Both the position numbers and the translations under genes were made by a program. A stretch of DNA of 64,000 bases from Eledone cirrhosa (lineage: Eukaryota), in assembly GCA_964016885.1 (NCBI GenBank), contig OZ024741.1, forward strand, positions 284,084,001-284,148,000, given 5' to 3'. This document shows, piece after piece, positions 3,383 through 61,950 of the stretch (its first letter is position 1; each line of letters opens with the position of its first letter). The notes below the pieces were generated by a model, which saw nothing but the letters and a program-made list of their open reading frames with translations, was not told the DNA's origin and made no database searches.

Positions 3383-3608
3383 TTATATGTATGTATATAT
3401 ATATATTATATATATATATATATTTGTTTAGCAAGATTCTTTATCTGAAATCGTGTGTTGAAACCGATATTGCTATACTTTGGGAGGGTCATGTTGCCAA
3501 TAAGAAACACACGCACCACTTGCTTTCACTTCAATTTATTATATATTAATAAATTTATAAATTTCTGGTTGGTTGGTTGGTTCCACAACCAGATAGTTGT
3601 TTATATAT

Positions 3609-3653
3609 AGTCATAGTTCTTTCGTCACACACTCTGTGACCTCTTCAGTGACT
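3609..3653 (-). ncRNA. Minimal type I hammerhead ribozyme (PLE-1 left arm)
   Basis: Reverse complement of 5619-5663. Confidence 0.8.
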
Positions 3654-4590
3654 GGGGATTCCTTTTTTTCTTTCTGTGCCTCTCCTTTGTTCTGTCCTAC
3701 GCCATTTTGTTTCTGTGTGTGCGTTGTGTGCTCAGTCTGCGCATGCGCCACATCCGGGTGTCTGTGTGTGTTTATGTTCATTTATCTATTTGTTTATTTA
3801 CATGTTACTGGTTGGTTGTTTGTTCTATGTGTGTGTGTGTTTTAATTTTGTCCTTAATTGTAAGTTGTGATGTTGCTGTTCCACTCATATTTTCTATTTA
3901 ATTTTGGTTGTAATTCTTTTATGTTTATTGCCTCTGTAATTTGTCTAAACATTGCGTCTTTTCTGTGTGTAGATTCTATTTTTATTTCTATGTTCTCTAA
4001 TTTACCCTTGTGTTCTATCTTAGCATATTGGTAGAGTACAGATGATTCTTTATTATCTTGAAGGTCTCGCCAGTGTTCATTTATCCGTTCCCCTACACTA
4101 CGAGCTGTCTCACCTATGTACACTATATTTTTGTCTCTACATTGTCCTTCAGTACATCTTATACTATACACTACATTTCTAATTTTACAGTTAATATGGG
4201 GGCTTATTTTACAGGTTACACATTTCTTATCTATACATGAGGGTCTTTGAAAAGGGTATGTCTTGCTAATAAGTGTTTTTACGGAGGAACCTGGTCTTTC
4301 TACTATCTTAATATTGAGTTTATGTTTATTTAGGGCCCTTCTAAATTTGTAAGCTAGTTCACCTCTAGGGGTTGTATCGATGAACATTACACTCTGGTAT
4401 TTATTGCTATCATACCATGAGTTTATTCTATTAGCCTTGTTCCTAGTTCTTTCTATTCTATTCCAAAATTTGCTCCTATACAAGGGGCAGGTCCCATTTA
4501 TGTCATTATTTACCATTTTTTCCCATTTGGTTCTGGCTCCTTTTGGTTCTGACACATTTCTCATCACCCGTACCAAATCCGCAATCATAC

Positions 4591-5417
4591 TGATTGCGGA
4601 TTTGGTACGGGTGATGAGAAATGTGTCCCGCATGTGCAACCCCGAAGAACTAGAGAGACACATACAACACTTCATCCACCGTATGCAGTTCTCTGGCTAC
4701 AATCAGAGAGATAGAATCAGAGTGTATAGAGGAGCCAGAACCAAATGGGAAAAAATGGTAAATAATGACATAAATGGGACCTGCCCCTTGTATAGGAGCA
4801 AATTTTGGAATAGAATAGAAAGAACTAGGAACAAGGCTAATAAAATAAACTCATGGTATGATAGCAATAAATACCAGAGTGTAATGTTCATCGATACAAC
4901 CCCTAGAGGTGAACTAGCTTACAAATTTAGAAGGGCCCTAAATAAACATAAACTCAATATTAAGATAGTAGAAAGACCAGGTTCCTCCGTAAAAACACTT
5001 ATTAGCAAGACATACCCTTTTCAAAGACCCTCATGTATAGATAAGAAATGTGTAACCTGTAAAATAAGCCCCCATATTAACTGTAAAATTAGAAATGTAG
5101 TGTATAGTATAAGATGTACTGAAGGACAATGTAGAGACAAAAATATAGTGTACATAGGTGAGACAGCTCGTAGTGTAGGGGAACGGATAAATGAACACTG
5201 GCGAGACCTTCAAGATAATAAAGAATCATCTGTACTCTACCAATATGCTAAGATAGAACACAAGGGTAAATTAGAGAACATAGAAATAAAAATAGAATCT
5301 ACACACAGAAAAGACGCAATGTTTAGACAAATTACAGAGGCAATAAACATAAAAGAATTACAACCAAAATTAAATAGAAAATATGAGTGGAACAGCAACA
5401 TCACAACTTACAATTAA
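4591..5417 (+). pseudogene. PLE-1 ORF C-terminus (RT thumb/linker + GIY-YIG endonuclease), 5'-truncated
   Basis: LIADLVRVMRN...CIDKKCVTC...NVVYSIRC...YIGETARSVGERINEH...EAINIKELQPKLNRK; mirror copy at 3854-4540 on the minus strand. Confidence 0.85.
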
Positions 5418-5618
5418 GGACAAAATTAAAACACACACACACATAGAACAAACAACCAACCAGTAACATGTAAATAAACAAATAGATAAATGAACATAAA
5501 CACACACAGACACCCGGATGTGGCGCATGCGCAGACTGAGCACACAACACACACACAGAAACAAAATGGCGTAGGACAGAACAAAGGAGAGGCACAGAAA
5601 GAAAAAAAAGGAATCCCC

Positions 5619-5663
5619 AGTCACTGAAGAGGTCACAGAGTGTGTGACGAAAGAACTATGACT
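5619..5663 (+). ncRNA. Minimal type I hammerhead ribozyme (PLE-1 right arm)
   Basis: Stem I AGTCA/TGACT; core CTGAAGA plus one extra G; stem II GTCACA/TGTGAC; GAAA; tiny stem III G-AA-C; predicted cleavage CUA^ after 5658. Confidence 0.8.
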
Positions 5664-5797
5664 ATATATAAACAACTATCTGGTTGTGGAACCAACCAAC
5701 CAACCAGAAATTTATAAATTTATTAATATATAATAAATTGAAGTGAAAGCAAGTGGTGCGTGTGTTTCTTATTGGCAACATGACCCTCCCAAAGTAT

Positions 5798-5855
<58 letters not shown>

Positions 5856-5955
5856 GTTAAAATACTGGAGTGTGTTGGAGTTAAACACCCTCTTCGTATT
5901 ATAGAAATGACAGTAAAAGGTATAGCTCAATGTAGTTAAACAGAGCCGAAAAATT

Positions 5956-7555
5956 CGTGATGATGCATTGTTTGTAATTAACTCTAGCACCAACAATGTA
6001 GAACATAATAAGAAGAAGCTTTATAAGTTTTTTAAAAGCTATAACCTTTCGATCACGATAGATAGAAATGATAGAGCGGTTAACTTTTTAGATGTGACTT
6101 TGGACTTGGTCACTAATAGTTTTAAACCCTTCCATAAGCCTAATGAAATACTTTCTTATGTTAGTCCCAATTCTAACCACCCCAAGTCTATGATAAGCTC
6201 TATAATTAAGGGTGTATCTAATAGGATTTCCACACTCTCTAAGGACATTTAATGAACATGCGGAGTACTATAATAATGCCCTAGCAAATTCAGGTTACTC
6301 TAGTAAAATACAATATAATAATAGTAACCTTAGAAAGTTTCCGTCTACTTTTAATAATAATAACATAATATCACATAACATGGCCATGAATGGGAGTAGC
6401 AAATATAGTAACCGTAAAAATTATATAGGTGTATCTGAACCCATCCATAAGTTAACCCACCGAACCCGTAATAGTGAATATAATACCTCTAGGAAACAAG
6501 TTGAACCCCCTGAGCGCTCACACATTGGTGATAATTTTGCTGGATCTTATTCTAATAATGTTGCTCCTACTGATCCTATCATTGGCCCTAATCCTTATGA
6601 TGGGATTCTGGACAGCAGCAGATCTACTGGAGGTAGAAACTGTAATAGACTTAATGAAATTTTGGCTGATTCTATGTATGTGGCTTTAACTAATCCTTGT
6701 AGTAACCCTAGTCTCGATGGTAGGATATTTGATAATGGTAGAGTCGGTAAGAATAAAAATAGAAGGCGATTAAATACTTATTTTAACCCGCCATATAATC
6801 AGGAAGTATCAACTAATATCCCTAGGTCTTTCTTCTCTATCTTAGAGAAAAATGTCCCCCCTTCTCATAAATACCATAGTATTTTTAATAAAAATGTTAT
6901 TAAACTTTCATTCTCTACCACCCCTAATATTAGTTCTCATTTAGCTAGCACTAACAATAGGAAAATTAGGGATGGATTCTCCTCTCTACATACTACTAGT
7001 CTGAACAGATCTGGCAATGCATTACCACCAGAACAGTCCTTATCTAATAGCAATCCTACGTGTAATGCATCACCACTTGAGTCAACCAATAACACCCGGA
7101 AGTGCAATTGTAGAGTGAGTGCTAACTGCCCTTTAAACGGTAACTGCCTTTCTAAGAACATTGTCTATGCTTGCGAAGTTATAACTAATTCCTCTAATAG
7201 AACTTATATAGGCTCTACATCTAACACTTTTAAGACTAGGTTTAACTCTCATATCTCTAATTTCAAGCATGTTAAGTTTAAGAATTCTACTTCTTTAGCA
7301 CATTATATCTGGGATCTTAAGGGAGCTAATATACCATATAGCCTTAACTGGCGTTTAGTAGCACGCTCTAACCACCTTTCTACACATACTAAGTTTTGTA
7401 ATCTCTGTATCCTCGAGACACACTCTATAATCTTCTCTAGCGCATCTTTACTTAATAGAAAGTCTGAGATATTCTCTTCTTGCCCCCATGCTATTTCTAA
7501 TTCATACTTTTATTATAAACCTATACGTTCTAGTAGTACAAATTGTACCCATTAG
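5956..7555 (+). pseudogene. PLE-2 RT (from the RDD motif) + GIY-YIG, frameshift near 6250
   Basis: ORFs 5968-6252 and 6212-7555; CNCRVSANCPLNGNCLSKNIVY...YIGSTSNTFKTRFNSH...CNLC...LLNRKSEIFSSCPH. Confidence 0.85.
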
Positions 7556-9356: not shown

Positions 9357-9394
9357 GCCCTGATGAGTCCTTAATAGGACGAAACATTGTCGGC
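9357..9394 (+). ncRNA. Minimal type I hammerhead ribozyme (PLE-2)
   Basis: GCC-CTGATGA-GTCCT(TAAT)AGGAC-GAAA-C(ATT)G-TC^-GGC; canonical core, GUC cleavage after 9391; AATAAA at 9396-9401. Confidence 0.9.
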
Positions 9395-9439
9395 TAATAA
9401 AGACTTTTGATGTATTGAAGGCTTCATTGTTTTACTCTC

Positions 9440-9441
<2 letters not shown>

Positions 9442-14561: not shown

Positions 14562-14644
<83 letters not shown>

Positions 14645-14775
14645 GTGAGGTTTTTTTTACAAAATGAAAAATAACCGAGGTGTCCTACACGAGTGAAAGT
14701 ATAAAGAAAAAGAGATGAAATCGAAAATGCAATAGGAGTCTTATTTTTTTTTTAAATATATATATTTATTTGGTT

Positions 14776-14813
14776 CCTTTACCGGTTTCGCAGTTCTTCT
14801 GCTTTTCAAAAGG
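14776..14813 (-). ncRNA. Variant hammerhead (U3-A8), left arm
   Basis: Reverse complement of 14858-14895. Confidence 0.75.
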
Positions 14814-14857
14814 TGAGTTGAGATGGAGGGTCTGTGGTTTTTCTCCATCTCAACTCA

Positions 14858-14895
14858 CCTTTTGAAAAGCAGAAGAACTGCGAAACCGGTAAAGG
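14858..14895 (+). ncRNA. Variant minimal hammerhead ribozyme with UUGAAAA core
   Basis: CCTT-TTGAAAA-GCAG(AAGAA)CTGC-GAAA-CCGG-TA^-AAGG: stems I and II perfect, palindromic stem III (ACCGGT), C3U/G8A covariation. Confidence 0.75.
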
Positions 14896-15264
14896 AACCA
14901 AATAAATATATATATTTTTTTTTTAAATAAAACTCCAGTTGCATTTTCGATTTCATCTCTTTTTCTTTATATATATATATATATACATATGTATGTATGT
15001 ATGTATATATATATACATATGTATGTATGTATATATATATATATATATACATATGTATGTATGTATGTATATATATATACATATGTATGTATGTATATAT
15101 ATACATATATATATATACATATGTATATATATATGTTTATATATATACATATGTATGTATGTATATATATATATACATATGCATGTATGTATATATATAC
15201 ATATATATACATATGTATGTATGTATATATATATACATATATATATATATATACATATGTATGT

Positions 15265-17041: not shown

Positions 17042-17097
<56 letters not shown>

Positions 17098-17800
17098 ATT
17101 AATAAGGTAATGAATTCTTTTACAATGGAATCAGCTCGAATGAGGAAAAAATATCCCCTGAGCAGTGTATAAATTAATATGTAAGTGATGAAACACAGAT
17201 ACCAACACATCTGTATATATATTGCAAAAGAAAAATTTAGCCAGATTGAAGTATACTAATTATTATACTACAGTTTGTCCATATCGATTTAAAATAATAA
17301 ATCAACGGAGACGAACTGTATTGCCAAAAGGCCGTGATGTTTAGACACATTTAAATTTCAAAATCAAACCTGTTCCGTAGATTCCCATATATACGACTGT
17401 TATTTCTAGCAGTACGGTTATGAGACTAGTTAGATACTGTAAATCCATGTGCGCCACGCAGTCTTTTAAATTATTTAGAAGTGAAGCATATCAATTTGTG
17501 TCTGGATGTTTACTGGGGAGAGCGGGACATGATATTCCTACACTTTTTTAACTCGAAACATATTTGGGTCTTAAAGTCTAAACTCATCTACGGAACAGGT
17601 TTGATTTTGAAATTTAAATGTGTCTAAACATCACGGCCTTTTGGCAATACAGTTCGTCTCCGTTGATTTATTATTTTAAATCGATATGGACAAACTGTAG
17701 TATAATAATTAGTATACTTCAATTTGGCTAAATTTTTCTTTTGCAATATATATACAGATGTGTTGGTATCTGTGTTTCATCACTTACATATTAATTTATA
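17098..17800. mobile_element. Unclassified fold-back insert (~214-bp inverted arms, ~205-bp spacer, ~70-nt tail)
   Basis: 17168-17381 is the reverse complement of 17587-17800; architecture matches the PLE fold-backs; no ORF or hammerhead found. Confidence 0.6.
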
Positions 17801-28680: not shown

Positions 28681-31555
28681 TGGGTAGGTAAGGATGATGG
28701 GTTCGGGGGAGTAGGTATTTTCCTGGCTGAGAAATGGATCAATAAGACAATAGAGGTAGTTCGAGTTAGTAATCGAATAATTAAGCTTAGATTAGTTGTA
28801 GGCAGGAGACTACTGACAATCATCTCTGTCTATGCTCCCCAAGCAGGCCTAGGCAAAGATGAGAAAGACTGCTTTTATGAGCAACTTTTGCAAACAACCG
28901 CAATGACAGAGGACGGAGACATCGTTATGCTAGCAGGAAACTTCAATGGTCATGTTGGACAGCTCCAGGATGGTTACACTGGGGTACATGGTGGGCACGG
29001 TTACGGTTCAAGAAATGAAGAAGGAGTGAGACTTGTGATGCAGGTACATTGACTATTTGCAACACAAACTTCCAGAAACCTGCCAATCACCTAATAACCT
29101 ACAAATCTGGTGAGCACATAACCCAGATTGACTTCTTACTAGTTAGGCAGCGGGACAGGCAGATATTGTCTAATACCAAGGCATACCCTGGGGAAGAATG
29201 TACCCCACAGCATAGGTTAGTTGTTAGTGATATCTCAGTAAGCAAGAGATGGAATGAGACATATAGGAAGGTGTGGAGAACAAAGGTCTGGAAGCTAAAA
29301 AACCTTTCACTAAAATACAAATTTAGGAAAGCCCTTCAAGATGTATATGACGAAAAAGAAGACGATTTAGAGACGTATGACATAGATAATAACTGGAAGT
29401 TCTTACGTGACAACTTGCTGCAGGCTACTGATGAAACTTGTGGCTGGAGCAGAGCTCCAACCAGACAGAGAGTGACCTGGTGGTGGAACAGCACAGTAGA
29501 TAAGGCTATTAGAGACAAAAGACTAGCATGGAAGGCTTGGAAAAAGGGTGGGAGTAGGGAAGAATATACAGCCACTAAGAGAGAAGCTAGACGTCAGGTA
29601 TACTTAGCAGGCAGGGAGGCAGAGAGTAGGAGGTTTGCCAATGTTCTGCGACGGGAAGATCCGAGGCGTGCGGTGTTCCACATTGCAAGGCAGTGTGTCA
29701 ATGCAAATCAGGATGTTGTTGGAGATAAATGTGTCCGGGATGATGTCATGAATGATCAGAAAAAGAGGCCTGGAAATGTCATTATGAGAGACTGATGAAT
29801 GTGGAGAACAAATGGGAGAGAGAGAAATTACCCTTGGTAGATCCGACAGAGGGACCAGCTATTGAGGTTGATAAATATAGGGTCCAAGAGGCGATTAGGG
29901 AAATGAAAAATGGTAAGGTTGCCGGACCATCGGGAATAGTTGCTGAGATGCTGAAGGCATCAGGGGACGTAGGCACTAAACTGGTTGCACGCAACATCAA
30001 TCAGGCTATATTTGGTGGTGTCATACCCAAAGACTGGTGCAGCAGTATTCTCATAAATTGCTACAAAGGTAAAGGGGATGCTTTGGAGAGGAGCAATTAT
30101 AGGGGTATAAAACTGATAGATCAGGTTATGAAAGTGGCAGAAAGGATTTTAGCACAACTAATTAGAGAATGGGTCAAACTAGATGAGATGCAGTTTGGTT
30201 TTGTGCCTGGGAAGAGTACAACAGATACCCTCTTCTTGGTGAGACAATTGCAAGAGAGGTTCTTAGAGAAGAATAAGCCACTATACTTAGCCTTTGTTGG
30301 CCTAGAGAAGGCCTTTGATAGGGTACCCTGATCTGTCATCTGGTGGTCCCTAAGGAAGCTAGGTGTTGAGGAATGGCTTGTGAGGACAGTGCAAACTTTG
30401 TACAGAGGTACTCTCAGTAAAGTCAGGGTAGGAATGGAGATTAGTGAGGAATTCCAGATACAAGTAGGAGTACATCAGGGTTCAGTCCTCAGCCCGCTCT
30501 CGTTCATTATAGTCCTCCAAGCCATAACAGAAGAGTTTAAGACTGGCTGTCCATGGGAACTTCTCTATGCTGACGATCTGGTTCTTATAGCAGAATCAGT
30601 AGAGGAGCTGGAGAATAAATTCTGGCTATGGAAACAGCAGTTGGAAGCAAGAGGACTGAGAGTGAATCTAGCTAAGACAAAAGCGTTGATGAGTAGAAAA
30701 GAGGACAAAACCCTGATTCCATCAGGGAAATGGCCATGTTCGATATGAAGAAAAGGAACTGGCATAAATTCTATAAAATGCACACAATGCAGATCCTGGG
30801 TACACAAGAGATGTAGCGGGATAGCAGGCAAACAAACAGGTAGGGAGAAATATGTATGCAGTAGATGTACAGGGAAATTAGACAGTAGAAGTCGCATTCA
30901 TAAACACATTTTTCAAATGCAGGAGGGCGCTATAGAAGTGGTGGATAGCTTCCGGTACCTAGGAGATCAGATTAGCATAGGAGGAGGGTGTTCCGAGGCC
31001 ATAGTATCTAGAATAAGGACGAGTTGGAAGAAGTTTAGGGAGCTGCTTCCTCTGTTGACGAAGAAGGGTTTCTCCCTGCGTACGAAAGGCCGGTTGTATG
31101 ATGCCTGTGTGAGGAGCGCGATGCTGCATGGTAGTGAGACATGGGCAGCAACTGCAGAGGATATGCGACGGCTGGAGAGAAATGAGGCAAGCATGCTCGT
31201 TGGATGTGCAGTGTCAATGTGCATGAACGACTCAGCATGAATGTGTTGAGAGAGAAACTGTGTGAGAGGGATAGAATGTAGTGTGCGAGAGAGGAGACTG
31301 AGGTGGTATGGACATGTGATGCGCATGGAGGATGACCGATGGGTGAAGAAGTGCCAGGAATTGCCAGTTGAAGGAAGACGTGGTAGAGGTAGACCACGAA
31401 AAACATGGGCGGAGGTGGTGAGAACAGACCTCAGATCATTGAAGCTCATGGTGGAGATGACGAGGGACCGTGACGAGTGGAGAGATGCTGTGCTGAATAA
31501 GACCCGTCCCACCCTTGCAAGCAGGGAAAAGCGGACGTAAAATGATGATGGTGAT
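28677..31555 (+). mobile_element. RTE family B, near full-length, multiply disrupted
   Basis: APE ([14 protein letters not shown]...SVYAPQ...GNFNGHVG...QHRLV) and RT fragments in several frames with stops; ends TLASREKRT* plus tail. Confidence 0.9.
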
Positions 31556-31571
31556 ATATATATACATACAT

Positions 31572-31625
31572 ATCATCATCATCATCACCGTTTTACGTCC
31601 GTTCTTCCACGCTAGCATGGGTTAG
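31572..31625 (-). mobile_element. RTE family C terminal tip, tail-to-tail with family B
   Basis: (cat)n-caccgttttacgtccgttcttccacgctagcatgggttag; duplicated at 37781-37834. Confidence 0.85.
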
Positions 31626-31676
<51 letters not shown>

Positions 31677-31677
31677 C

Positions 31678-31718
<41 letters not shown>

Positions 31719-31741
31719 CATACATATGTATATATATATAC

Positions 31742-31802
<61 letters not shown>

Positions 31803-31803
31803 C

Positions 31804-31846
<43 letters not shown>

Positions 31847-31869
31847 CATATGTATATATATATATATAT

Positions 31870-31900
<31 letters not shown>

Positions 31901-32005
31901 CATACATATATATATATATATATATACATACATATATATATATACATACATATATATATATATATATACATACATACATATGTATATATATATATATATA
32001 CATAC

Positions 32006-32066
<61 letters not shown>

Positions 32067-32071
<5 letters not shown>

Positions 32072-32285
32072 GACCAACTACCTCCGGTTGGTGCGAGCAA
32101 CGGCTAAAAAAAGTCATTGGGACACGTAAATAAAGGGGACACGAGAGTGTAAACAAACAAAGATGGTGAAGCAACGAAAAGTGAGGAAGAAGGAGTCAAG
32201 TCCCAAATTTCCTTGAATATAATTTCGGTGAAATCGTGAACGAGAGAGAATAAAGACCATCAAACCTGGTTGGAATGTGAGCACA
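32067..32285. other. Orphan ~220-bp insert X
   Basis: Apparently identical copy at 42947-43165; similar short motifs at both ends (taaagacca..cc..ggttgg). Confidence 0.55.
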
Positions 32286-32296
32286 TATGTATATAT

Positions 32297-36280: not shown

Positions 36281-36330
36281 ATATATATATATATATATGT
36301 ATGTATATACACATGTATATATGTATATAT

Positions 36331-36733
36331 ATGACCCCTTAGCCTTTGTCAAGGCAGAATTCTAGGAGAAGGAAAACTCTGATATAACACCTGCAACCCT
36401 GATGGTATCCAATGATGTTGACTTGTTCTTCTTTTTGGTAAATATCATCTTGGTTAAGAGAGTGGGACTGGCTTTGTGCAGTGCCTTTACTCACTATAAA
36501 AGCTTCACGGCACAGGCATTGCTTTATATCTGGAGAGCTCTCTGCACTTGTTGTCACATGGTACCATGGGCCCAGCACTATGTATCAATAATTGTCACAA
36601 GTGTAGTGTTTGTACCAGAGTTTTCAAGTCGCTGGCTGGACTAAAAAGTCACACTCGTTCAGGGCATTGGTAGGGGTTCTCCTACATGGATCTAAAGTAG
36701 TGGCCGTACTCGAAAACGAGTTGGCAGCCACCA
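36331..36733 (+). mobile_element. Bipartite RTE derivative, truncated copy
   Basis: Homologous to 10015-10415; same breakpoint as 43235-43637. Confidence 0.75.
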
Positions 36734-36751
36734 TATATATATATATATACA

Positions 36752-36790
<39 letters not shown>

Positions 36791-36824
36791 TATGTATGTA
36801 TATATATATATATACATATATATG

Positions 36825-36867
<43 letters not shown>

Positions 36868-36868
36868 G

Positions 36869-36917
<49 letters not shown>

Positions 36918-36962
36918 GTATGTATATACATATATATATATATATATATATACATATGTATG

Positions 36963-37001
<39 letters not shown>

Positions 37002-37010
37002 GTATGTATA

Positions 37011-37329
37011 TATCATCATTCATCATCATTTCATTTTACGTCCGCTTTTTCCCTGCCTGCAAGGGTGGGACGGGAACTGATTCTGGCTTGATTTCTACAG
37101 CTGGATGCCCTTCCTAACACCAACCTCATTTACAGTGAGTGCTGGGTGCTTTTTTGCCGTGGCACCTCCACAACAACTTTGCAGTGGAATGATATGGACC
37201 TCAGACCCTATCATCTCATTTCTACAGCTGAGTAAACTGGAGCAATGTGAAACCCGGTCTGAGAATTGAACTCACAACCTTTCGATTGTAAGGTCAATGC
37301 TCTAACCACTAAGCCATGTGCCTCCACTA
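37011..37329 (-). mobile_element. tRNA-derived SINE with chimeric RTE-C/RTE-B 3' tail
   Basis: Head gtggaggcaca-TGGCTTAGTGG (A box)...GAGTTCAATTC (B box); tail matches the family C 3' UTR and then the family B terminus; (GAT)-like tail. Confidence 0.85.
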
Positions 37330-37381
37330 TATATATATATACATATGTATATATATATATATATATATGTATGTATATAAA

Positions 37382-37765
37382 TGGAGAGAAATGAGGCAAG
37401 CATGCTCGTTGGATGTGCAGTGTCAATGTGCATGAACGACTCAGCATGAATGTGTTGAGAGAGAAACTGTGTGAGAGGGATAGAATGTAGTGTGCGAGAG
37501 AGGAGACTGAGGTGGTATGGACATGTGATGCGCATGGAGGATGACCGATGGGTGAAGAAGTGCCAGGAATTGCCAGTTGAAGGAAGACGTGGTAGAGGTA
37601 GACCACGAAAAACATGGGCGGAGGTGGTGAGAACAGACCTCAGATCATTGAAGCTCATGGTGGAGATGACGAGGGACCGTGACGAGTGGAGAGATGCTGT
37701 GCTGAATAAGACCCGTCCCACCCTTGCAAGCAGGGAAAAGCGGACGTAAAATGATGATGGTGATA
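37382..37765 (+). mobile_element. RTE family B 3' end (duplicate of ~31173-31555)
   Basis: Shares the same frameshifts and the downstream C-tip junction with the copy at 31.2-31.6 kb. Confidence 0.9.
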
Positions 37766-37834
37766 TATATATACATACATATCATCATCATCATCACCGT
37801 TTTACGTCCGTTCTTCCACGCTAGCATGGGTTAG

Positions 37835-37883
<49 letters not shown>

Positions 37884-37884
37884 C

Positions 37885-37927
<43 letters not shown>

Positions 37928-37932
37928 CATAC

Positions 37933-38026
<94 letters not shown>

Positions 38027-42194: not shown

Positions 42195-42701
42195 ATACAA
42201 AGTAAAAACCTACTACAGTCAGTAGGCATTTCTATCAAAACACACCCCCGTCCCACCACCTCCACCCCACCCACACCGCCCCTTTCAATGTAAAGTTATG
42301 TTGGTCCCACAACATCCAGGCCGAAACAAATGAGATCGTGTAGGTGTCACAACAAAAAACACACAGTCCACGCTGTAAATGTGGCCGTGTAGGCAACACG
42401 GTAAAAACCTCCCAGCCCCACACTGTAAATGTGGTTGGTGTTAGGAAGGGCATCCAGCTGTAGAAAACCCGCCAGACAGTCCACGCTGTAATGTGGCCGT
42501 GTAGGCAACACGGTAAAAACCTCCCAGCCCCACACTGTAAATGTGGTTGGTGTTAGGAAGGGCATCCAACTGTAGAAAACCCGCCAGACAGTCCTATGCG
42601 AGCAAGACAACCACTCTTGCCTCAAGTGGGAAAACCCCCGTCCAAACCCATGCAAGCGTGGAACACGGACGCTAAACCTGATGATGATGATATATACATA
42701 C

Positions 42702-42732
<31 letters not shown>

Positions 42733-42759
42733 CATACATATGTATATATATATATATAT

Positions 42760-42790
<31 letters not shown>

Positions 42791-42829
42791 CATACATATA
42801 TATATATATATACATACATATATATATAT

Positions 42830-42884
<55 letters not shown>

Positions 42885-42946
42885 CATACATATGTATATA
42901 TATATATATATACATACATATGTATATATATATATATATATATATA

Positions 42947-43164
42947 TTAAAGACCAACTACCTCCGGTTGGTGCGAGCAACGGCTAAAAAAAGTCATTGG
43001 GACACGTAAATAAAGGGGACACGAGAGTGTAAACAAACAAAGATGGTGAAGCAACGAAAAGTGAGGAAGAAGGAGTCAAGTCCCAAATTTCCTTGAATAT
43101 AATTTCGGTGAAATCGTGAACGAGAGAGAATAAAGACCATCAAACCTGGTTGGAATGTGAGCAC

Positions 43165-43165
<1 letters not shown>
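42947..43165. other. Orphan insert X, second copy
   Basis: Matches 32067-32285. Confidence 0.55.
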
Positions 43166-43210
<45 letters not shown>

Positions 43211-43234
43211 ATACATATGTATATATGTATATAT

Positions 43235-43637
43235 ATGACCCCTTAGCCTTTGTCAAGGCAGAATTCTAGGAGAAGGAAAACTCTGATATAACACCTGCAA
43301 CCCTGATGGTATCCAATGATGTTGACTTGTTCTTCTTTTTGGTAAATATCATCTTGGTTAAGAGAGTGGGACTGGCTTTGTGCAGTGCCTTTACTCACTA
43401 TAAAAGCTTCACGGCACAGGCATTGCTTTATATCTGGAGAGCTCTCTGCACTTGTTGTCACATGGTACCATGGGCCCAGCACTATGTATCAATAATTGTC
43501 ACAAGTGTAGTGTTTGTACCAGAGTTTTCAAGTCGCTGGCTGGACTAAAAAGTCACACTCGTTCAGCGCATTGGTAGGGGTTCTCCTACATGGATATAAA
43601 GTAGTGGCCGTACTCGAAAACGAGTTGGCAGCCACCA
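43235..43637 (+). mobile_element. Bipartite RTE derivative, truncated copy
   Basis: Near-identical to 36331-36733. Confidence 0.75.
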
Positions 43638-43751
43638 TATATATATATATATACATATATATGTATATATATATATATATACATATATATGTATATATAT
43701 ATATATATATACATATATATGTATGTATATATATATATATACATATATATG

Positions 43752-43796
<45 letters not shown>

Positions 43797-43801
43797 GTAT
43801 G

Positions 43802-43840
<39 letters not shown>

Positions 43841-43849
43841 GTATGTATA

Positions 43850-44169
43850 TATCATCATTCATCATCATTTCATTTTACGTCCGCTTTTTCCCTGCCTGCA
43901 AGGGTGGGACGGGAACTGATTCTGGCTTGATTTCTACAGCTGGATGCCCTTCCTAACACCAACCTCATTTACAGTGAGTGCTGGGTGCTTTTTTGCCGTG
44001 GCACCTCCACAACAACTTTGCAGTGGAATGATATGGACCTCAGACCCTATCATCTCATTTCTACAGCTGAGTAAACTGGAGCAATGTGAAACCCGGTCTG
44101 AGAATTGAACTCACAACCTTTCGATTGTAAGGTCAATGCTCTAACCACTAAGCCATGTGCCTCCACTAT
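43850..44169 (-). mobile_element. tRNA-SINE with chimeric tail, second copy
   Basis: Matches 37011-37329. Confidence 0.85.
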
Positions 44170-44231
44170 ATATATATACATATGTATGTATGTATATATA
44201 TATATATATATATATACATATGTATGTATAT

Positions 44232-48088: not shown

Positions 48089-49010
<922 letters not shown>

Positions 49011-49285
49011 AGCGGCGATGAATTAGTTTTGCGAGGTTTTTTATATGAAATCGTGTGTCGAAACAGATATTGTTATATTTGGGGAGGGTCATATTTGCGT
49101 AATATTGCCAGAATTAATAACAGAACACACTCACTGTTTGGTTGGTTTTCGCTTCTCGCTGTCTTCTATATATATATATCTGCGATCTAACTTACTCGGT
49201 CCTCAATGTTGCCATTGACTGACCGGCGGTCAAAAATAATACAGATACAATATAGACAAACACATATATATATAGTTTACATAAT

Positions 49286-49329
49286 TTACATAAATCTTTC
49301 GTTGCACATCTGCAACATCGTCAGTGGTG
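49286..49329 (-). ncRNA. Hammerhead-like motif (PLE-5), weak stem I
   Basis: Reverse complement of 52157-52200. Confidence 0.55.
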
Positions 49330-49597
49330 TTATATTCATTGTTCCTCCTGTTGTGTTGTATGTCTACGCCATTTTTTTTTGTTCAGTCTGTCTATATATT
49401 TATTTATTTATTTGCTTGTTTGTTTATCTTATTTTATTTTGTCTTCTTTGCGCATGCGTTTGCGTGTGTGTATTGTGTTATGTGTGATGTGTGACTAGTG
49501 TGTATAGTGTTGTGTCTGCTGGGTGACTAGTGTGTGTTTATGTGCTTGTGTATGTATTTATTTATCTTATTTTATTTAATTTAATTTACTTATTTAT

Positions 49598-51870
49598 TTA
49601 TACTTCTCTTAGGTCAGTGTTGTTTGTTTGGGTGTTGTTGTTGTTCCACTCATTCTTTCTGTTTAGCTTTGGTCTTCTAATTTCTATTTCACTGGCCTCT
49701 CTGATTTGCCTATCTGCTGGGTCATTCCTATGTTTAGATATTATTCTAATTTCTATGTTGTCTATGTTACCGTCATGTTGTTGTCTAGCATGTTCGTATA
49801 GTACTGACCCGTTTTTTCGTCCTTTTAGTTCCCCCCAGTGTTGGTCTATCCTTTCACCTATGCTACGAGCTGTCTCACCTATGTATGTTGTTGTCGTGTT
49901 TCTGCAAGTACCCTCTGTACATCTTATGCTATAGACTACGTTTCTAGTTTTACAGTTTATCCGGGGGTTCACCTTACATATGATACATTTCCTATTGGTA
50001 CAGTGGGTTTTCTTAAAAGGGTAGGTTTTGCTGATCAGGGATTTTATGGTGGTTCCTGGCTTTTCTACCACCTTTATTTTTAAGTGGGTCTTTCTCAGGG
50101 CCTTTCTACACTGGTTAGCTAATTTCCCTCCAGGGGTGGCGTCCACAAACATGACACTCTGATATCTCTGGTTGTCGTACCATGATGTGGCCTTCCCTAT
50201 CTTATGTCTAGCCCTATCTAAGCTATTCCATGATTTGCTCCTGTATAGTGGGCAAATTCCTTTCATGTCCAGTTCTATGAGGGTCTTATACTTTTCCATG
50301 GCTCCTTCGTATACTCTGACTCTGTCTCTTTGGTTGTAGCCAGAGAACTGCATGCGGTTGATGAAGTGTTGGATGTGTCCTTCCATTTCTGTTGGGTCGC
50401 ACATGCTGGACACATTCTTCATCACTCGTACCAAATCTGCGATCAGAATATTAAACTTAGCACTACTGGACATTGCTGAGTTTTTGAGTATCAGGTATTT
50501 GGAGGCCATGGGTTTAGCATAGTGTGAGTGGAGAATTTGGGCTCTCTCGTCTATAGTGTTAATCCAGAGTTCTGTGTCTAATACAGGTAGTCTATTGTTA
50601 GGGTGTTTGGAAGGGAAGTCTATAGTTACAGTTATACTCTGGTGTATGGAATTAGCTATCTGCTGGATGCTTTCATCGTGCTACGTTCTAAATCAAACTT
50701 GTTAGTGCTCTCTAGTGGGGGTGTTCTTATAGCTATATTGATATCGTCTACATAACGAGAGTACATGATGAGGTCTATGGAGCTTTCATTAAGGAGATCT
50801 TTAAGTCTCCTTTCCCACCATACCATGAAAAGGTTGGCAACATCACCAGCTATGCTGACGCCGATGGCTGCTCCCTCATTTTGGGTGTAGATTTTCTCAT
50901 TGAACTTAAATATGTGGCCCTTTAGGGTAGTTTTGATACTAGCCCCTATTGCATGTGCGACCATTTTTCTTACCTGATCAGTGTTTTGGGGGGTCCGTAT
51001 AGCTTTGGTCCACCCAATCCACCTTCCTATGGGAGTCTTTTTAGCCATTGAGGTTATGGTGGGGGGTCTACCTCTTATAGGTCTACTAGGGCAGAAACAT
51101 CTAAGGTCATGGCTGTCTAGGTAGTCAGTGTCGTAGGTAAGTCTAAGTAGGAGGCCCAGTTCGTCTGTGTCGACGTCGCAGAACTCCACCTCACTCTCAA
51201 TGATCATCTCCACACATCTTTTCACAGCAAAATCAATGTTAATGGATGGGTACAGTGACACCACATCCATGCTGCCTATTATGCAGTTGGATAGGCTCCT
51301 GTTTTTGTTGCACTCACTGATTCTGCTGAGGAGGTCCTCTGTACTTTCACATACATCTGGGGACATCTTGATTATGGGGCGTATAACCATTGAGAGGAAG
51401 TAGGAGATCCTGTAGTTGCTAGCTATATTAGCTCCGCATACGGGTCTTGTTGGTGGTCCTGTTGTCGGGTCGTCGACTGTCTTGTGGTCTTTGCGGAGCC
51501 CATACAAGGGTGGTATGCCATTGTTAGACGCCTGGAAGTTGTTGGCAGTGCGTCTGCTTGGCTTTAGGATGTCAGTCCACATCATCATGTGAGCGTTGAG
51601 GATTTTTTCTCTCCCATCGTGTGTTAGTTGTGCAACTTCGCTCGTTTTGGTGATGTGGGGTTGCATTGCCTCGATGTAGTTCGGCATGCTATCTATTGAC
51701 ATCCTACCAGACTTATCTGTGGGTAGACACACTACCTCACCATCCCTTGTGCGCTGCTTGAGGCTAACCAAGCCTTCTACAGGTTTTATCCCAAGTTGTT
51801 GGGCCTCTGGTCTGCTCTGTCTCATAGTGTACCTGTCTACTACTTGTCTAATCTTATTTCTAGCTATGGT
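49598..51870 (-). pseudogene. PLE-5 RT + GIY-YIG ORF with one frameshift (~50665)
   Basis: TDKSG, LYGLRKDHK, RPVC, SMDVVSLYPSI, QNEGAAIG, RYVDD; then CTNRKCIIC...NVVYSIRC...YIGETARS...LYEH...H...LNRKNEW. Confidence 0.9.
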
Positions 51871-52156
51871 GAACTGAGAGAAGTATAAATAAATAAGTAA
51901 ATTAAATTAAATAAAATAAGATAAATAAATACATACACAAGCACATAAACACACACTAGTCACCCAGCAGACACAACACTATACACACTAGTCACACATC
52001 ACACATAACACTATACACACACGCAAACGCATGCGCAAAGAAGACAAAATAAAATAAGATAAACAAACAAGCAAATAAATAAATAAATATATAGACAGAC
52101 TGAACAAAAAAAAATGGCGTAGACATACAACACAACAGGAGGAACAATGAATATAA

Positions 52157-52200
52157 CACCACTGACGATGTTGCAGATGTGCAACGAAAGATTTATGTAA
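52157..52200 (+). ncRNA. Hammerhead-like motif (PLE-5 inverted arm)
   Basis: CTGACGA-T-GTTGCA(GATG)TGCAAC-GAAA-GATT-TA^TG; positionally homologous to the PLE-1 hammerhead; stem I only ~2 bp. Confidence 0.55.
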
Positions 52201-52416
52201 ATTATGTAAACTATATATATATGTGTTTGTCTATATTGTATCTGTATTATTTTTGACCGCCGGTCAGTCAATGGCAACATTGAGGACCGAGTAAGTTAGA
52301 TCGCAGATATATATATATAAAAGACAGCGAGAAGCGAAAACCAACCAAACAGTGAGTGTGTTCTGTTATTAATTCTGGCAATATTACGCAAATATGACCC
52401 TCCCCAAATATAACAA

Positions 52417-52492
<76 letters not shown>

Positions 52493-55794: not shown

Positions 55795-55987
55795 ATAGGA
55801 ACCAGTAAGACCCCGACAGCTGAGCTCAAGCCGTTTCGACGGCTAATTCTGCCAGAATTAGCCGTCGAAACGGCTTGAGCTCAGCTGTCGGGGTCTTACT
55901 GGTTCCTATTACCCACTCTACTACCTCAAGTATTGAGTACTTTGGTGCCTTATGGTCCACCTGGTTCCTTACCACATCTCCTTCATT
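55795..55987. mobile_element. Tiny fold-back insert: perfect ~115-bp palindrome plus ~78-nt tail
   Basis: 55795-55851 is the reverse complement of 55853-55909 around a single central base; tail 55910-55987; flanked by TA. Confidence 0.6.
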
Positions 55988-55992
55988 ATATA

Positions 55993-56026
<34 letters not shown>

Positions 56027-56039
56027 CATATATATATAC

Positions 56040-56112
<73 letters not shown>

Positions 56113-56118
56113 CATATG

Positions 56119-56218
<100 letters not shown>

Positions 56219-56314
56219 CATATATATACATATATATATATATACATATATATATACATATATATATATATACATATGTATGTATATATATATATATATA
56301 TACATATGTATGTA

Positions 56315-56346
<32 letters not shown>

Positions 56347-56354
56347 AACATATG

Positions 56355-56398
<44 letters not shown>

Positions 56399-56401
<3 letters not shown>

Positions 56402-58319
56402 TTGCAAAAGAAACTGCCTCAGTACACTGCAAAATTGGACCACTCTTCCACACGGACGGTTCATTAACCGAAAATCCCCAAGAGATATGTGAAATACTGA
56501 ACGAACAGTACAAAAGTGTCTTCACATGTCCACTGAGGCACATGCAAATAACGAAGCCAGAAGAGTTCTTTGATGCCACAACACTACATCAAGAAATGGC
56601 AACCATCAACCACATAGACATAACGGAGGAGGATGTGGTGTACGCCATTGATGAAATTAGAACAGACTCGGCTGCTGGACCTGATGGATTCCCAGCAGTT
56701 CTCCTAAAAATATGTAAGCGGGCCTTAGCAACTCCACTGAAGATGCTCTTCAGAAGCTCCTTGGCTAGCGGTGTACTACCCAGGGAGCTGAAAGAAGGCA
56801 CAATATGCCCTATGCCCTATCCATAAAGGAGGTAGTAGAGCGGAGGCCAAGAACTATAGGCCAGTCTCCCTGACGTCGCATATCAGTAAGGTCATGGAGC
56901 GAGTCGTCAGAAAGAAACTAATCACTTTCCTCGAAGAAAATGACCGCCTGACTAGCACGCAACATGGCTTCCGCCCAGGAAGAAGCTGCCTTACACAGCT
57001 GCTACATCACTACGACTGGGTACTGAGACAACTACTAGACAGCTCACATGTAGACGTGATATATCTTGACTTTGCGAAGGCCTTTGACAAGGTCGACCAC
57101 GGAATGATATGTCACAAACTACACGGACTCGGCATAACTGGAAAAGTAGGTGAGTGGCTGCATGGCTTCCTAAGGGACAGAAGCCAGGCAGTCGCAGCAA
57201 ATGGGGCCCTCTCGAGGGAAACACCGATAACAAGTGGGGTGCCTCAGGGGACAGTCCTGGGACCACTACTGTTTTTGGTGGCTCTCTCGGACATGCCCTC
57301 TGTGGTGCATGCAACAACATCCCTCACTAGCTATGCTGATGACACTAAGGTAGCACAGGCAATCAAAAACCCGGCTGACGCTGCCCTCTTACAGCAGGAT
57401 CTGGATGCCATATACAGATGGGCGGAAGAAAACAACATGCAGTTTAATGCTGGCAAATTCCAAGCCCTACAATACAAACCTACAAACACAAATATAGCGG
57501 AACACAGCTACACAGGACCAGGAGGGACCGATATCCCCGTGTCAAAATCGATACGAGACCTGGGCATAGACATGAGCGATGATGCATCTTTTTCTTCACA
57601 CATCATGAAGGTGGCGACAGCATGTAGACGATTCGCTGGCTGGATCTTGAGGACTTTCCTTACAAGAGATCGAGACACCATGTTGACACTGTGGAGGACT
57701 TTTGTCCTAAGCCGCCTGGACTACTGCTCCCAGCTGTGGTCACCCCATAGTGTCAAACTAACCACGGAGCTTGAGGCAATCCAGCGAAGCTACACCAAGA
57801 GGATTGCCAAGATGAGGGAGGCAAGCTACTGGGAGAGGCTGAGGGAACTGAACCTCTACTCCTTGGAGCGAAGACGGGAGAGATACGCAGTGATCTACAT
57901 GTGGAAAATCCTGGAGGGACTAGCACCAAACTTTGGCATTGGGAGCTGGACCAACCGTCGAACAGGACATCACTGTGTGGTGCCAAAGGTGCCGCCTTCC
58001 ACATCTAGAATAAGGAGCAGGTATTGCAATAGCCTGGGATTCAAGGGCCCTCAACTCTTCAACAGGCTGCTGAGGCATCTGCGAGACTTGCATATGACGT
58101 GGAGGTGGATGTCTTTAAGAAACATCTCGACACCTTGTTATCCAGGATCCCGGATGAGCCCACAGCAAGACACGAGGGAAACCTAAGGGCAGCAGCAACA
58201 AACTCCCTCCTACACCAGTGGCCAACCTATACAGGCTGGAGATAAAATGTGTAGCAACAAGGGCGGTGCCCCAGCATGGCCTCAGCCGGATGGCTGAAAC
58301 AGGTAAAAGAGTAAAAGAG

Positions 58320-58320
<1 letters not shown>
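56399..58320 (+). mobile_element. CR1-clade LINE, 5'-truncated
   Basis: QHGFRPGRSC, YLDFAKAFDKVDH, SGVPQGTVLGP, YADDTK, LDYCSQLWSP, LYSLERRRER; frameshift from a 7-bp duplication (tgcccta)2 at ~56806; tail (gtaaaaga)2. Confidence 0.9.
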
Positions 58321-58364
<44 letters not shown>

Positions 58365-58424
58365 GTATATATATATATATGTATATAATATAAGATCAAA
58401 AGATGGTTAAAGGAGTTCAATATA

Positions 58425-58491
58425 TTTTATTATGCGCATTTCAAAAACAAACATCATCAAACAATAATATTTGTGTTTTCATCAGATAAAA
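58425..58491 (-). ncRNA. Hammerhead ribozyme motif (PLE-6 left arm)
   Basis: Reverse complement of 61759-61825. Confidence 0.7.
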
Positions 58492-59734
58492 CAGGAGAAC
58501 ATGATATGAAGGCTAAAAAAACACTTGTTGATAGTGCAGTTTTAAATCAACATATGAAAAGTGGTTTTAGATTGATGTGTGATATTGGGAAAAATATTTT
58601 ATTTAGAGAGGGGGGGAGAGAAAAGGATGAAAAGGGAAGGAGATGAGAGGGAGAGATGGGTGATAGAGAGAAAGAGATAGTTTTTATAACAGAGAGGAGA
58701 TATATTTTATATAGAGGGGTTGAAAGCCGTTGGAAGATACTGTATAAATTAAAAATTTTTGAAAATTAACGAAGGGAGGATATGTGCGAGGAAAAAATAT
58801 ATTATATTTAGGGAGGGGTGGGGGTGGAAAGGATGAAAAAAAGGGGAGGAGATGAGAGTGAAGGTGGAAAGGGAGAGATGGGTGATAGAGAGAAAGAGAT
58901 AGTTTTTATAACTGAGAAAAAGATATAATGTTTTAATATAGAGAGGTTGGGAACCGTTGGAAGATAATGTGTAAATTAAAGGAATTTGAAAATTAACGAA
59001 GGGAAATTATGTATGGAGATAGAGAGAAAAAAATAACGAAGGGAGATTATGTATGGAGATAGAGAGAAAAAAAAAATAAATAATAATTGTGGGTGAATAT
59101 TCAAAAGGAGAAATGTAGGAATCTTAAAATTAGCAAAGAGAAAATGTTTATGTATAGGATTTGAGAAAAATAATGTGAAGTTAAAGTTTTTATATTGAAT
59201 TCATATGTATTAATAATGAGTTCGTTGATGGGGAGAAAAAAATAATAATAAATTAAGGATGAAATTGAGATTAAAAAGATTTATGATAGAGAGAAAAAAT
59301 AATAATGATTGCGGATGAATACTCAAAATGTCAAAAACAAATGTTATTGTTTTACGAAGAGATATAATGAGGGTGATGAGTAAACGGGTATTATAGAGTG
59401 TATAATGCCCTTTAAAGTAAGGTAGATGGGTATATTTTAAAGAATATATGAGTATATATTAAACAAATATATATAATAATAAATTAAGGATGAAATTGAG
59501 ATTAAAAAGATTTATGATAGAGGGAAAAAAAAAAATAATAATGATTGCGGATGAATATTCAAAATGTCAAAAACAAATGTTATTGTTTTACGAGAAGATA
59601 GGATGAGGTAAATGAATAAACGAGTACTATAGAGTGTATAATGCCCTTTAAAGTAAGGTAGATGGGTATATTTTAAAGAGGTGTATGTATATGTGCCTTT
59701 GAGAAAAGATTCTAAATTGATAAAGAATTGAATA

Positions 59735-60195
59735 TTAACTGTATACTTTGTGAAAAGTTCTATGGAATTTATGGAGGCAGATGGAAAACAAATCCGAGCG
59801 TCTATTTATTATGGATTCTAGGTTAGAGATAATGGTAAATTTTTCATTTAGGCAGAGATTACAGATTTTAGATAGAGAACTGTTCAAGTACGAGGATGCA
59901 GAAGAAATCTTTTTCCAAAAGATGTTATATTTAATGTTTTTGTCTTTTAAGGACCATATGAGTTCTGAGAGAGCAGTGTTAGTTCTTTTAAGTTTGTATT
60001 TGAAAGATGAATGATGATTATAGAGACGAGCTTTAAAAGAGGTGGAAGTGGAGCCAAAATAGGTGAAGGAGTTGGTGCTAGTTATAATTTTACATTCATA
60101 AATTAAGTTTTTATCGAGGCAATGGTTGTTGAGAGGACATTTATTTTTAATGCGGCAGTTGCAATTAGAGAGATTATTAATGAGTGATCTAGTGT
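59735..60195 (-). pseudogene. PLE-6 GIY-YIG endonuclease fragment
   Basis: ORF 59735-60208; the plus-strand mirror at 60200-60515 is shorter. Confidence 0.85.
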
Positions 60196-61758
60196 TATCC
60201 ACTTCCACCTCTTTTAAAGCTCGTCTCTATAATCATCATTCATCTTTCAAATACAAACTTAAAAGAACTAACACTGCTCTCTCAGAACTCATATGGTCCT
60301 TAAAAGACAAAAACATTAAATATAACATCTTTTGGAAAAAGATTTCTTCTGCATCCTCGTACTTGAACAGTTCTCTATCTAAAATCTGTAATCTCTGCCT
60401 AAATGAAAAATTTACCATTATCTCTAACCTAGAATCCATAATAAATAGACGCTCGGATTTGTTTTCCATCTGCCTCCATAAATTCCATAGAACTTTTCAC
60501 AAAGTATACAGTTAATATTCAATTCTTTATCAATTTAGAATCTTTTCTCAAAGGCACATATACATACACCTCTTTAAAATATACCCATCTACCTTACTTT
60601 AAAGGGCATTATACACTCTATAGTACTCGTTTATTCATTTACCTCATCCTATCTTCTTGTAAAACAATAACATTTGTTTTTGACATTTTGAATATTCATC
60701 CGCAATCATTATTATTTTTTTTTTTTTTTTTTTCCCTCTATCATAAATCTTTTTAATCTCAATTTCATCCTTAATTTATTATTATATATATTTGTTTAAT
60801 ATATACTCATATATTCTTTAAAATATACCCATCTACCTTACTTTAAAGGGCATTATACACTCTATAATACCCGTTTACTCATCACCCTCATTATATCTCT
60901 TCGTAAAACAATAACATTTGTTTTTGACATTTTGAGTATTCATCCGCAATCATTATTATTTTTTCTCTCTATCATAAATCTTTTTAATCTCAATTTCATC
61001 CTTAATTTATTATTATTTTTTTCTCCCCATCAACGAACTCATTATTAATACATATGAATTCAATATAAAAACTTTAACTTCACATTATTTTTCTCAAATC
61101 CTATACATAAACATTTTCTCTTTGCTAATTTTAAGATTCCTACATTTCTCCTTTTGAATATTCACCCACAATTATTATTTATTTTTTTTTTTTCTCTCTA
61201 TCTCCATACATAATCTCCCTTCGTTATTTTTTTCTCTCTATCTCCATACATAATTTCCCTTCGTTAATTTTCAAATTCCTTTAATTTACACATTATCTTC
61301 CAACGGTTCCCAACCTCTCTATATTAAAACATTATATCTTTTTCTCAGTTATAAAAACTATCTCTTTCTCTCTATCACCCATCTCTCCCTTTCCACCTTC
61401 ACTCTCATCTCCTCCCCTTTTTTTCATCCTTTCCACCCCCACCCCTCCCTAAATATAATATATTTTTTCCTTGCACATATCCTCCCTTCGTTAATTTTCA
61501 AAAATTTTTAATTTATACAGTATCTTCCAACGGCTTTCAACCCCTCTATATAAAATATATCTCCTCTCTGTTATAAAAACTATCTCTTTCTCTCTATCAC
61601 CCATCTCTCCCTCTCATCTCCTTCCCTTTTCATCCTTTTCTCTCTAAATAAAATATTTTTCCCAATATCACACATCAATCTAAAACCACTTTTCATATGT
61701 TGATTTAAAACTGCACTATCAACAAGTGTTTTTTTAGCCTTCATATCATGTTCTCCTG

Positions 61759-61825
61759 TTTTATCTGATGAAAACACAAATATTATTGTTTGATGATGTT
61801 TGTTTTTGAAATGCGCATAATAAAA
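61759..61825 (+). ncRNA. Hammerhead ribozyme motif (PLE-6 right arm)
   Basis: TTTTAT-CTGATGA-[AU-rich stem II]-GAAA-TGCGCA-TA^-ATAAAA; 6-bp stem I, palindromic stem III. Confidence 0.7.
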
Positions 61826-61950
61826 TATATTGAACTCCTTTAACCATCTTTTGATCTTATATTATGCATACTCCAGTCCCACAAACTGTAGAGTGCTTTT
61901 TATCCGATATCTGCATTGCTTTATTGTACTACAATAAAACTCACCTCCTA

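Follow-up and report, generated by a model that had tools for sequence, protein, structure and literature searches.

The window analysed here, a 64,000-nucleotide stretch of the Eledone cirrhosa genome (contig OZ024741.1, positions 284,084,001 to 284,148,000 of the forward strand), is a nest of retroelements within TA tracts. Six inserts in it, I1 to I6, each consist of two 5'-truncated arms joined head to head, with their 3' ends outward and TA tracts on either side (Table 1). In all six, one arm carries a 3' tail and the partner arm has none. The origin of this arrangement was investigated across the families to which the inserts belong, which their sequences identify as Penelope-like elements (PLEs).

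Six inserts and their families

A sequence-only reading of the window had described the six inserts as paired, 5'-truncated, head-to-head arms between TA tracts; this description was borne out for all of them, and the coordinates given for the inserts were right to within a few bases. We refer to the end of the tailed arm as the long site and to the end of the tail-less arm as the short site. In the window, the tails measure 45 nt (I1), 58 nt (I4), 68 nt (I2), 70 nt (I3), 80 nt (I5), and 88 nt (I6), the I1 copy ending at a minor long site in a family whose tail is 60 nt. These lengths correct the estimate of about 50–85 nt in the sequence-only reading. The terminus of the short arm can also be read as TA tract (ATAT in I1 and I4, TATA in I2 and I3, TAT in I5 and I6), and its merging into the tract was thus confirmed, with 3–4 shared nucleotides in each insert.

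Three families are classed as Neptune/Nematis-type (I1, I2, and I4), two as Hydra-type (I5 and I6), and one as non-autonomous (I3), with clade assignments based on motifs in translations rather than on a reverse transcriptase (RT) tree and with Neptune and Nematis not separated. Tandem units were recovered for all six families (I1, 4081 bp; I4, 4147 bp; I6, 3672 bp; I5, 3543 bp; I3, 519 bp; I2, about 4.6 kb), and every family combines tandem or partial-tandem copies, which form pseudo-long terminal repeats, with an inverted 5'-truncated copy, as is characteristic of PLEs. An RT with a C-terminal GIY-YIG endonuclease was found in the open reading frames (ORFs) of the I1, I2, I4, I5, and I6 units, whereas I3 has no ORF. 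Pfam matches were weak (RVT_1, E = 6e-5 and 0.01; GIY-YIG, E = 3e-7 to 0.004), and the Pfam scan gave no relevant match for I1, the I4 endonuclease piece, or the I5 RT piece. Inspection of the translations by eye against the clade features in PMC8557442 revealed a CX2-5CxxC linker and a CCHH endonuclease motif in I1, I2, and I4. By the same comparison, I5 and I6 share the CxCX5C linker, the DKT motif, the lack of CCHH, and the (TA)n targets of the Hydra clade; the RWK motif reads RWR in the I5 translation and was not seen in that of I6, and the units of 3.5–3.7 kb exceed the length of "generally under 3 kb" given for that clade (PMC8557442).

A pattern search detected the hammerhead core motif in I1, I3, I4, and I6, but not in I2 or I5; an Rfam scan showed no hammerhead among the best 150 of 302 rows, which were TA-repeat noise. 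In I5, a hammerhead-like fold with a non-canonical core, missed by the pattern search, was noticed by eye at about positions 1350–1430 of locus L311 (L numbers denote collected loci). The motif tataacaatat, picked out by the sequence-only reading in its PLE-1 and PLE-5, is indeed shared; these are, however, the sister families I1 and I4, which are about 70% alike and do not count as independent cases. Long asparagine- or threonine-rich low-complexity inserts lie ahead of the RT in I4 and I1 ORFs (L250, L239, L300, and L307) and recall the asparagine-rich inserts of rotifer Penelopes (PMC3846280). The I4 long site coincides with an ATG, and the I1 and I4 tails are in frame with the ORF start region (L154–L156 and L239). 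No autonomous partner of I3 was found among the loci collected. Small non-autonomous tandem units keep the same two end sites (519 bp in I3 at L080, L083, and L089; 257 bp in I5 at L314; 165 bp in I2 at L378).

Table 1. Arms of the six inserts, with coordinates in the window
Insert (extent)	Arm	Coordinates	Strand	Features
I1 (3422-5805)	tailed	3422..4587	-	Neptune/Nematis-type PLE; 45-nt tail (3422-3466) ending at a minor long site; deletion of about 100 nt, with a 9-nt filler at 4542-4550
I1	tail-less	4586..5805	+	ORF end with GIY-YIG-type endonuclease (stop 5417); hammerhead motif; ATAT match at short site
I2 (14632-14971)	tailed	14632..14845	-	3' end of 4.6-kb PLE unit (RT and C-terminal endonuclease); 7-nt TA match 14632-14638
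I2	tail-less	14843..14971	+	3-nt overlap at recurrent central junction; TATA match at short site
I3 (17097-17800)	tailed	17097..17382	-	tail 17097-17167; 519-bp non-autonomous tandem unit with hammerhead motif
I3	tail-less	17383..17800	+	extends 203 nt further 5' than tailed arm
I4 (49009-52419)	tailed	49009..51876	-	tail 49009-49066; RT and endonuclease ORF pieces; Neptune/Nematis-type, 4147-bp unit
I4	tail-less	51870..52419	+	ATAT match at short site
I5 (55795-55990)	tail-less (57 nt)	55795..55851	-	Hydra-type PLE, 3543-bp unit
I5	tailed	55852..55990	+	tail from 55910
I6 (58385-61953)	tail-less	58385..60199	-	Hydra-type PLE, 3672-bp unit; extends 147 nt further 5' than tailed arm
I6	tailed	60198..61953	+	tail 61866-61953

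Two end sites and their match to the TA target

Copies of the six families were collected from the same genome (3.0 Gb). For I1, I2, I3, and I5 these were the best-scoring DNA matches, together with twenty longer I1 regions and read-through searches; for I4 and I6, exact-pattern matches were taken in genome order (5030 and 9949, respectively), and part of the first 100 of each was used. Of the 642 distinct arms obtained, 431 ended in clean junctions and 140 in unclean ones; a further 70 continued into the following unit, and 1 was at the edge of its locus. Mapping of the arm ends across copies, as the sequence-only reading had proposed for the inverted arm, revealed that they concentrate: 347 of the 431 clean junctions fall at one of two major sites per family. 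In tandem copies the sequence reads on past the long site, indicating that both ends are internal to the RNA. The idea that the tailed arm reaches the full 3' end was thus mistaken; this end, too, has a TA match of 2–7 nt. The two sites bound tails of 58–90 nt.

The match of the short and long site to the TA tract is 4 and 4 nt in I1, 4 and 7 in I2, 4 and 2 in I3, 4 and 3 in I4, 3 and 3 in I5, and 3 and 2 in I6, so that all 12 major sites match by 2–7 nt. Compared with random positions of the same end regions, this gave a Fisher p of 3e-4 over 10 independent sites, I1 being omitted as the sister of I4. At the level of single junctions, where copies of one site are not independent, a match of at least 2 nt was present at 392 of the 431 clean junctions, as against 14–26% for random positions.

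The minor ends are more informative. Copies of I6 end at three neighbouring TA/AT registers of the long site (6, 24, and 14 copies), with an off-register join seen once, and minor ends on neighbouring TA/AT registers occur likewise in I1, I3, I4, and I5. Where G is the next base of the RNA, a G follows the junction at 8 of 73 ends, compared with 0 of 275 elsewhere, which could reflect an interrupted tract able to pair with that base. For a templated C after T, a base that the tract cannot provide, the count was 0 of 164 ends, and for C after A it was 2 of 71. Locus L231 has a 13-nt target duplication that ends in the 4 nt of the short-site match; it was the one clear target duplication among 34 flank pairs, a count to be read with the fact that pure TA flanks make duplications unreadable.

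Choice of the site by the best TA match was rejected. Longer TA runs of 6–13 nt (13 nt in I4) lie 41–153 nt upstream in five families and are unused, suggesting that pairing adjusts the register without selecting the site. Accordingly, the sites are likely fixed by the structure of the ribonucleoprotein (RNP), with pairing setting the register. These results support the tail-less end as one fixed site per family that matches the TA target and acts as an independent priming site. To this extent the data agree with the sequence-only reading, in which the second target end anneals to a fixed internal motif and primes a cDNA. Its other elements were unsupported or too narrow: the match is not special to the short arm, since the tailed end also matches, it does not select the site, and the products give no order of the two priming ends.

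Raw Illumina reads from three samples of one other study (X11–X13) were also searched. They showed the same ends, at four places for I6 and at both major sites for I5, as well as opposite-strand joints in which the second side begins no more than about 20 nt from the I5 short site. As the reads are reduced-representation, their counts are not copy frequencies, and they cover the I5 and I6 families. The two I5 ends also appear in contigs labelled as a different organism (run X4 on L311:1330-1600).

Relation between the two arms

Both ends could be classified at 179 of 202 head-to-head junctions from five families. Of these inserts, 174 combine a tailed with a tail-less arm, 3 have two tails, and 2 have none (p = 4e-45 against free choice, which would give half). 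The same rule was followed by 74 of 76 inserts in I4 and I6, the families sampled by position, and I2 pairs were typed as one of each in 36 of 43 cases automatically and in 2 more by eye.

The two arms of an insert also share subfamily-diagnostic bases, indicating that one template gave both arms. Partner arms mismatched at 0 of 250 diagnostic sites in I4, 4 of 723 in I6, 0 of 22 in I3, 3 of 121 in I5, and 29 of 524 in I1, whereas non-partner arms mismatched at 12–28%. Two unrelated RNAs as the sources of the two arms were rejected.

The reach of the arms was compared in 173 inserts, one row being dropped as a miscount. The tail-less arm extended more than 20 nt further 5' in 58, the tailed arm did so in 34, and the two lay within 20 nt in 81. 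Simple fold-back of the tailed cDNA, which predicts that the tailed arm always extends further 5', was rejected on this ground. Of 30 inspected short-tailed inserts, about 11 have a tailed arm that continues no more than 10 nt beyond the short site; seven I5 rows of this set with a reach of -18, which are subfamily alignment artefacts, and one row that is an internal deletion were not counted as tail-only. Because the tailed arm in these approximately 11 inserts is little more than the tail, the other arm was not copied from it. Six of 30 listed I4 loci contain only an inverted stub of the tail, a figure that records occurrence and does not establish an excess of tail-only stubs.

The central joints between the arms were measured in 140 cases and comprised 79 with extra bases, some of which may be reference mismatches, 14 blunt joints, and 47 overlaps. 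Of the 61 without extra bases, 30 overlap by at least 2 nt (null 19%). Both arms often stop at a shared hot spot upstream of the short site, at about 50–65 nt in I5 (the loop of a hammerhead-like stem), about 160–176 nt in I6 (a 6-nt palindrome), and about 125–145 nt in I2 (a natural hairpin). Stopping of both arms there yields many palindromic inserts of 200–400 bp that resemble miniature inverted-repeat transposable elements.

Models of insertion, neighbouring elements and known systems

We consider coupled two-site priming with short pairing to be the probable origin of these inserts, with both nicked strands priming reverse transcription of one RNA at two fixed sites. The endonuclease would nick both strands of the TA tract; one 3' end would pair over 2–7 nt at the long site, which lies downstream, and the other at the short site upstream of it, and the tail would be the RNA between them. 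Two RT subunits may hold the two sites in an RNP that is likely a dimer, as predicted for Poseidon_Ac. Both cDNAs would be extended towards the 5' end of the RNA, and the rear one would either halt close to the short site or displace the one ahead of it. The two cDNA 3' ends would then be linked head to head, through short overlaps or filler bases, and filled in. For the wider proposition that TA-targeting PLEs obligatorily integrate at two ends, with a dimeric RNP, one RNA, each strand using its own site, and the cDNAs joined, we regard the case for and the case against as evenly balanced.

Several observations weigh against coupled priming. The priming steps are reconstructed from insertion products rather than from biochemistry. 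The TA matches are short, copies of one site are not independent tests, and at 39 of the 431 clean junctions the match falls below 2 nt; in L231 the long end is located beyond the TA tract and lacks a strict match. The unused longer runs mean that pairing alone is not sufficient, and RNA folding gave no common structure, the sites not being consistently unpaired. Moreover, Poseidon_Ac in vitro starts at sites without homology to the cut DNA (PMC11167929). In I2, partner arms disagree in 102 of 461 diagnostic comparisons (32% for non-partners), chiefly within a slipping T/A run, and the identity of partner arms also fits fold-back or later gene conversion. In addition, unclean junctions led to the exclusion of 140 of the 642 arms, tail-bearing queries were used to pick part of the I1 and I5 samples, and the I5 set contains related subfamilies.

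In the main alternative, which we consider unlikely, both target ends engage the two sites, one cDNA then snaps back, and the copy is joined to the short cDNA or to the target, so that most of the inverted arm is a second-strand copy. This hybrid would explain the near-identity of partner arms, the junction hot spots at hairpins or palindromes in I2, I5, and I6, and the reach of the arms, which is near-equal in 81 inserts and otherwise more often greater in the tail-less arm (p = 0.016 for 58 versus 34); self-priming has, furthermore, been proposed for PLE palindromes (PMC3846280). It would, however, need two mirror-image routes for the recurrent central junction of I2, where the loop arm is tailed 13 times and tail-less 8 times (the query favoured that junction). 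Also against it, the joint in 7 of 47 I6 inserts is a loop-free 6-nt overlap, and the I1 arms in the window differ by a deletion of about 100 nt and a filler beside the junction, which is possibly a later event.

Two start sites defined by the protein, without pairing of primer and RNA, are a still less probable explanation; the TA matches would then arise by chance in an AT-rich RNA or as a side effect of the endonuclease cleaving the DNA that encodes its own RNA. The Poseidon_Ac result in vitro (PMC11167929), the conserved position of the sites between the sister families I1 and I4, the unused longer runs, and the long end of L231 all agree with it. It is countered by the match at all 12 major sites and its significance over the independent ones, by the I6 long end, which moves among three TA/AT registers and leaves them only once, and by the G extension, which appears only where the tract can supply it. 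That the head-to-head inserts are assembly artefacts or later rearrangements, such as recombination or deletion back to the TA tract, is very improbable. The window does carry local inverted and direct duplications, and the read evidence concerns I5 and I6 copies elsewhere rather than the six window junctions themselves; nevertheless, hundreds of separate loci have base-exact ends, one tail per insert was found in 174 of 179, and the reads of other samples reproduce the same ends and opposite-strand joints. An assembly artefact as such was rejected on the evidence of the loci and the reads.

Other retroelements surround the six inserts in the window. Another 5'-truncated PLE with a CxCX5C linker (Hydra-type) begins directly after the I1 TA tract (5853-7555), and an RT fragment of another type of long interspersed nuclear element (LINE) lies between the TA tracts of I5 and I6 (56399-58186). 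Three inverted LINE pairs, which we take to be RTE-like, have their 3' ends outward and 97–98% identity (14968-16934/23014-24980, 20177-21848/29907-31571, and 32285-36283/38712-42723); both copies of the last contain a 112-bp internal tandem repeat. These pairs may be local inverted duplications or another two-ended insertion. Direct local duplications with 93–99% identity span element–tract junctions (31173-32300, 36274-38026, 42690-44219, and 45319-48605/52533-55797).

In L1 twin priming, as Ostertag and Kazazian are said to have described it in 2001, the second target end primes a cDNA internally through short complementarity, giving an inversion. The arms then copy non-overlapping parts of the RNA, and the internal site falls at variable places according to complementarity. 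The families analysed here resemble this process in independent internal cDNA priming by the second end, which the tail-only and the longer tail-less arms point to. They differ in that the arms mostly overlap, by tens to thousands of bases (wide overlap in most of the 174 inserts, none in about 11), and in that two fixed internal sites 58–90 nt apart are used, neither of them a poly(A) end. Because these families depart from L1 in both respects, we do not class the process as L1 twin priming, and this part of the sequence-only reading was unsupported or too narrow. In L1, about 4 terminal nucleotides of the primer matter for priming on the RNA (PMC3649969).

Endonuclease-containing (EN+) PLEs have been described with an inverted 5'-truncated copy, a one-sided tail of 30–40 nt, a hammerhead motif, and (TA)n targets; the tail was attributed to endonuclease resolution and the inversion to self-priming (PMC8557442, PMC3846280). 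The families studied here share the head-to-head arms, partial tandems, tail at one end, and (TA)n targets, with a candidate hammerhead motif in four of them, but their tails are 58–90 nt long and their arms argue against simple self-priming. The closest in vitro comparison is with Poseidon_Ac, in which the tail lies between two internal RT start sites, both strands undergo cleavage and extension, and a dimer is predicted (PMC11167929). The two internal sites around the tail, the cutting and extension of both strands, the AT-rich targets, and the predicted dimer are common ground; in Poseidon_Ac there is no target homology, whereas both sites match the TA tract here, and the excerpts of that paper do not link the two start sites to the two arms of one insertion. 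The use of two start sites on either side of a tail was to this extent already published. In endonuclease-deficient PLEs (Athena and Coprina), which prime on telomeric overhangs, the PLE RT is likewise aided by RNA matching a simple-repeat target; these elements differ in lacking the endonuclease, in acting at chromosome ends, and in using one end (PMC8557442).

Earlier publications already record the arrangement of the arms, the preference for TA, and the pair of start sites (PMC8557442, PMC3846280, PMC11167929). Our literature search found no paper tying twin priming or target microhomology to EN+ PLE tails, nor any description of the one-of-each rule, of a single template, or of a match at both sites, although older proposals may exist. 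The origin of PLE inverted repeats with a one-sided tail and the preference for microsatellites are named open questions (PMC8557442). The rules described here (one arm per site, one template, and short pairing at both sites) apply to two PLE clades, depart from the no-homology result for Poseidon and from the self-priming proposal, and yield base-level predictions for an existing in vitro assay. If TA-targeting PLEs do integrate by an obligatory two-ended reaction, it alone would account for the inverted repeat, for the restriction of the tail to one side, and in part for the preference for microsatellites.

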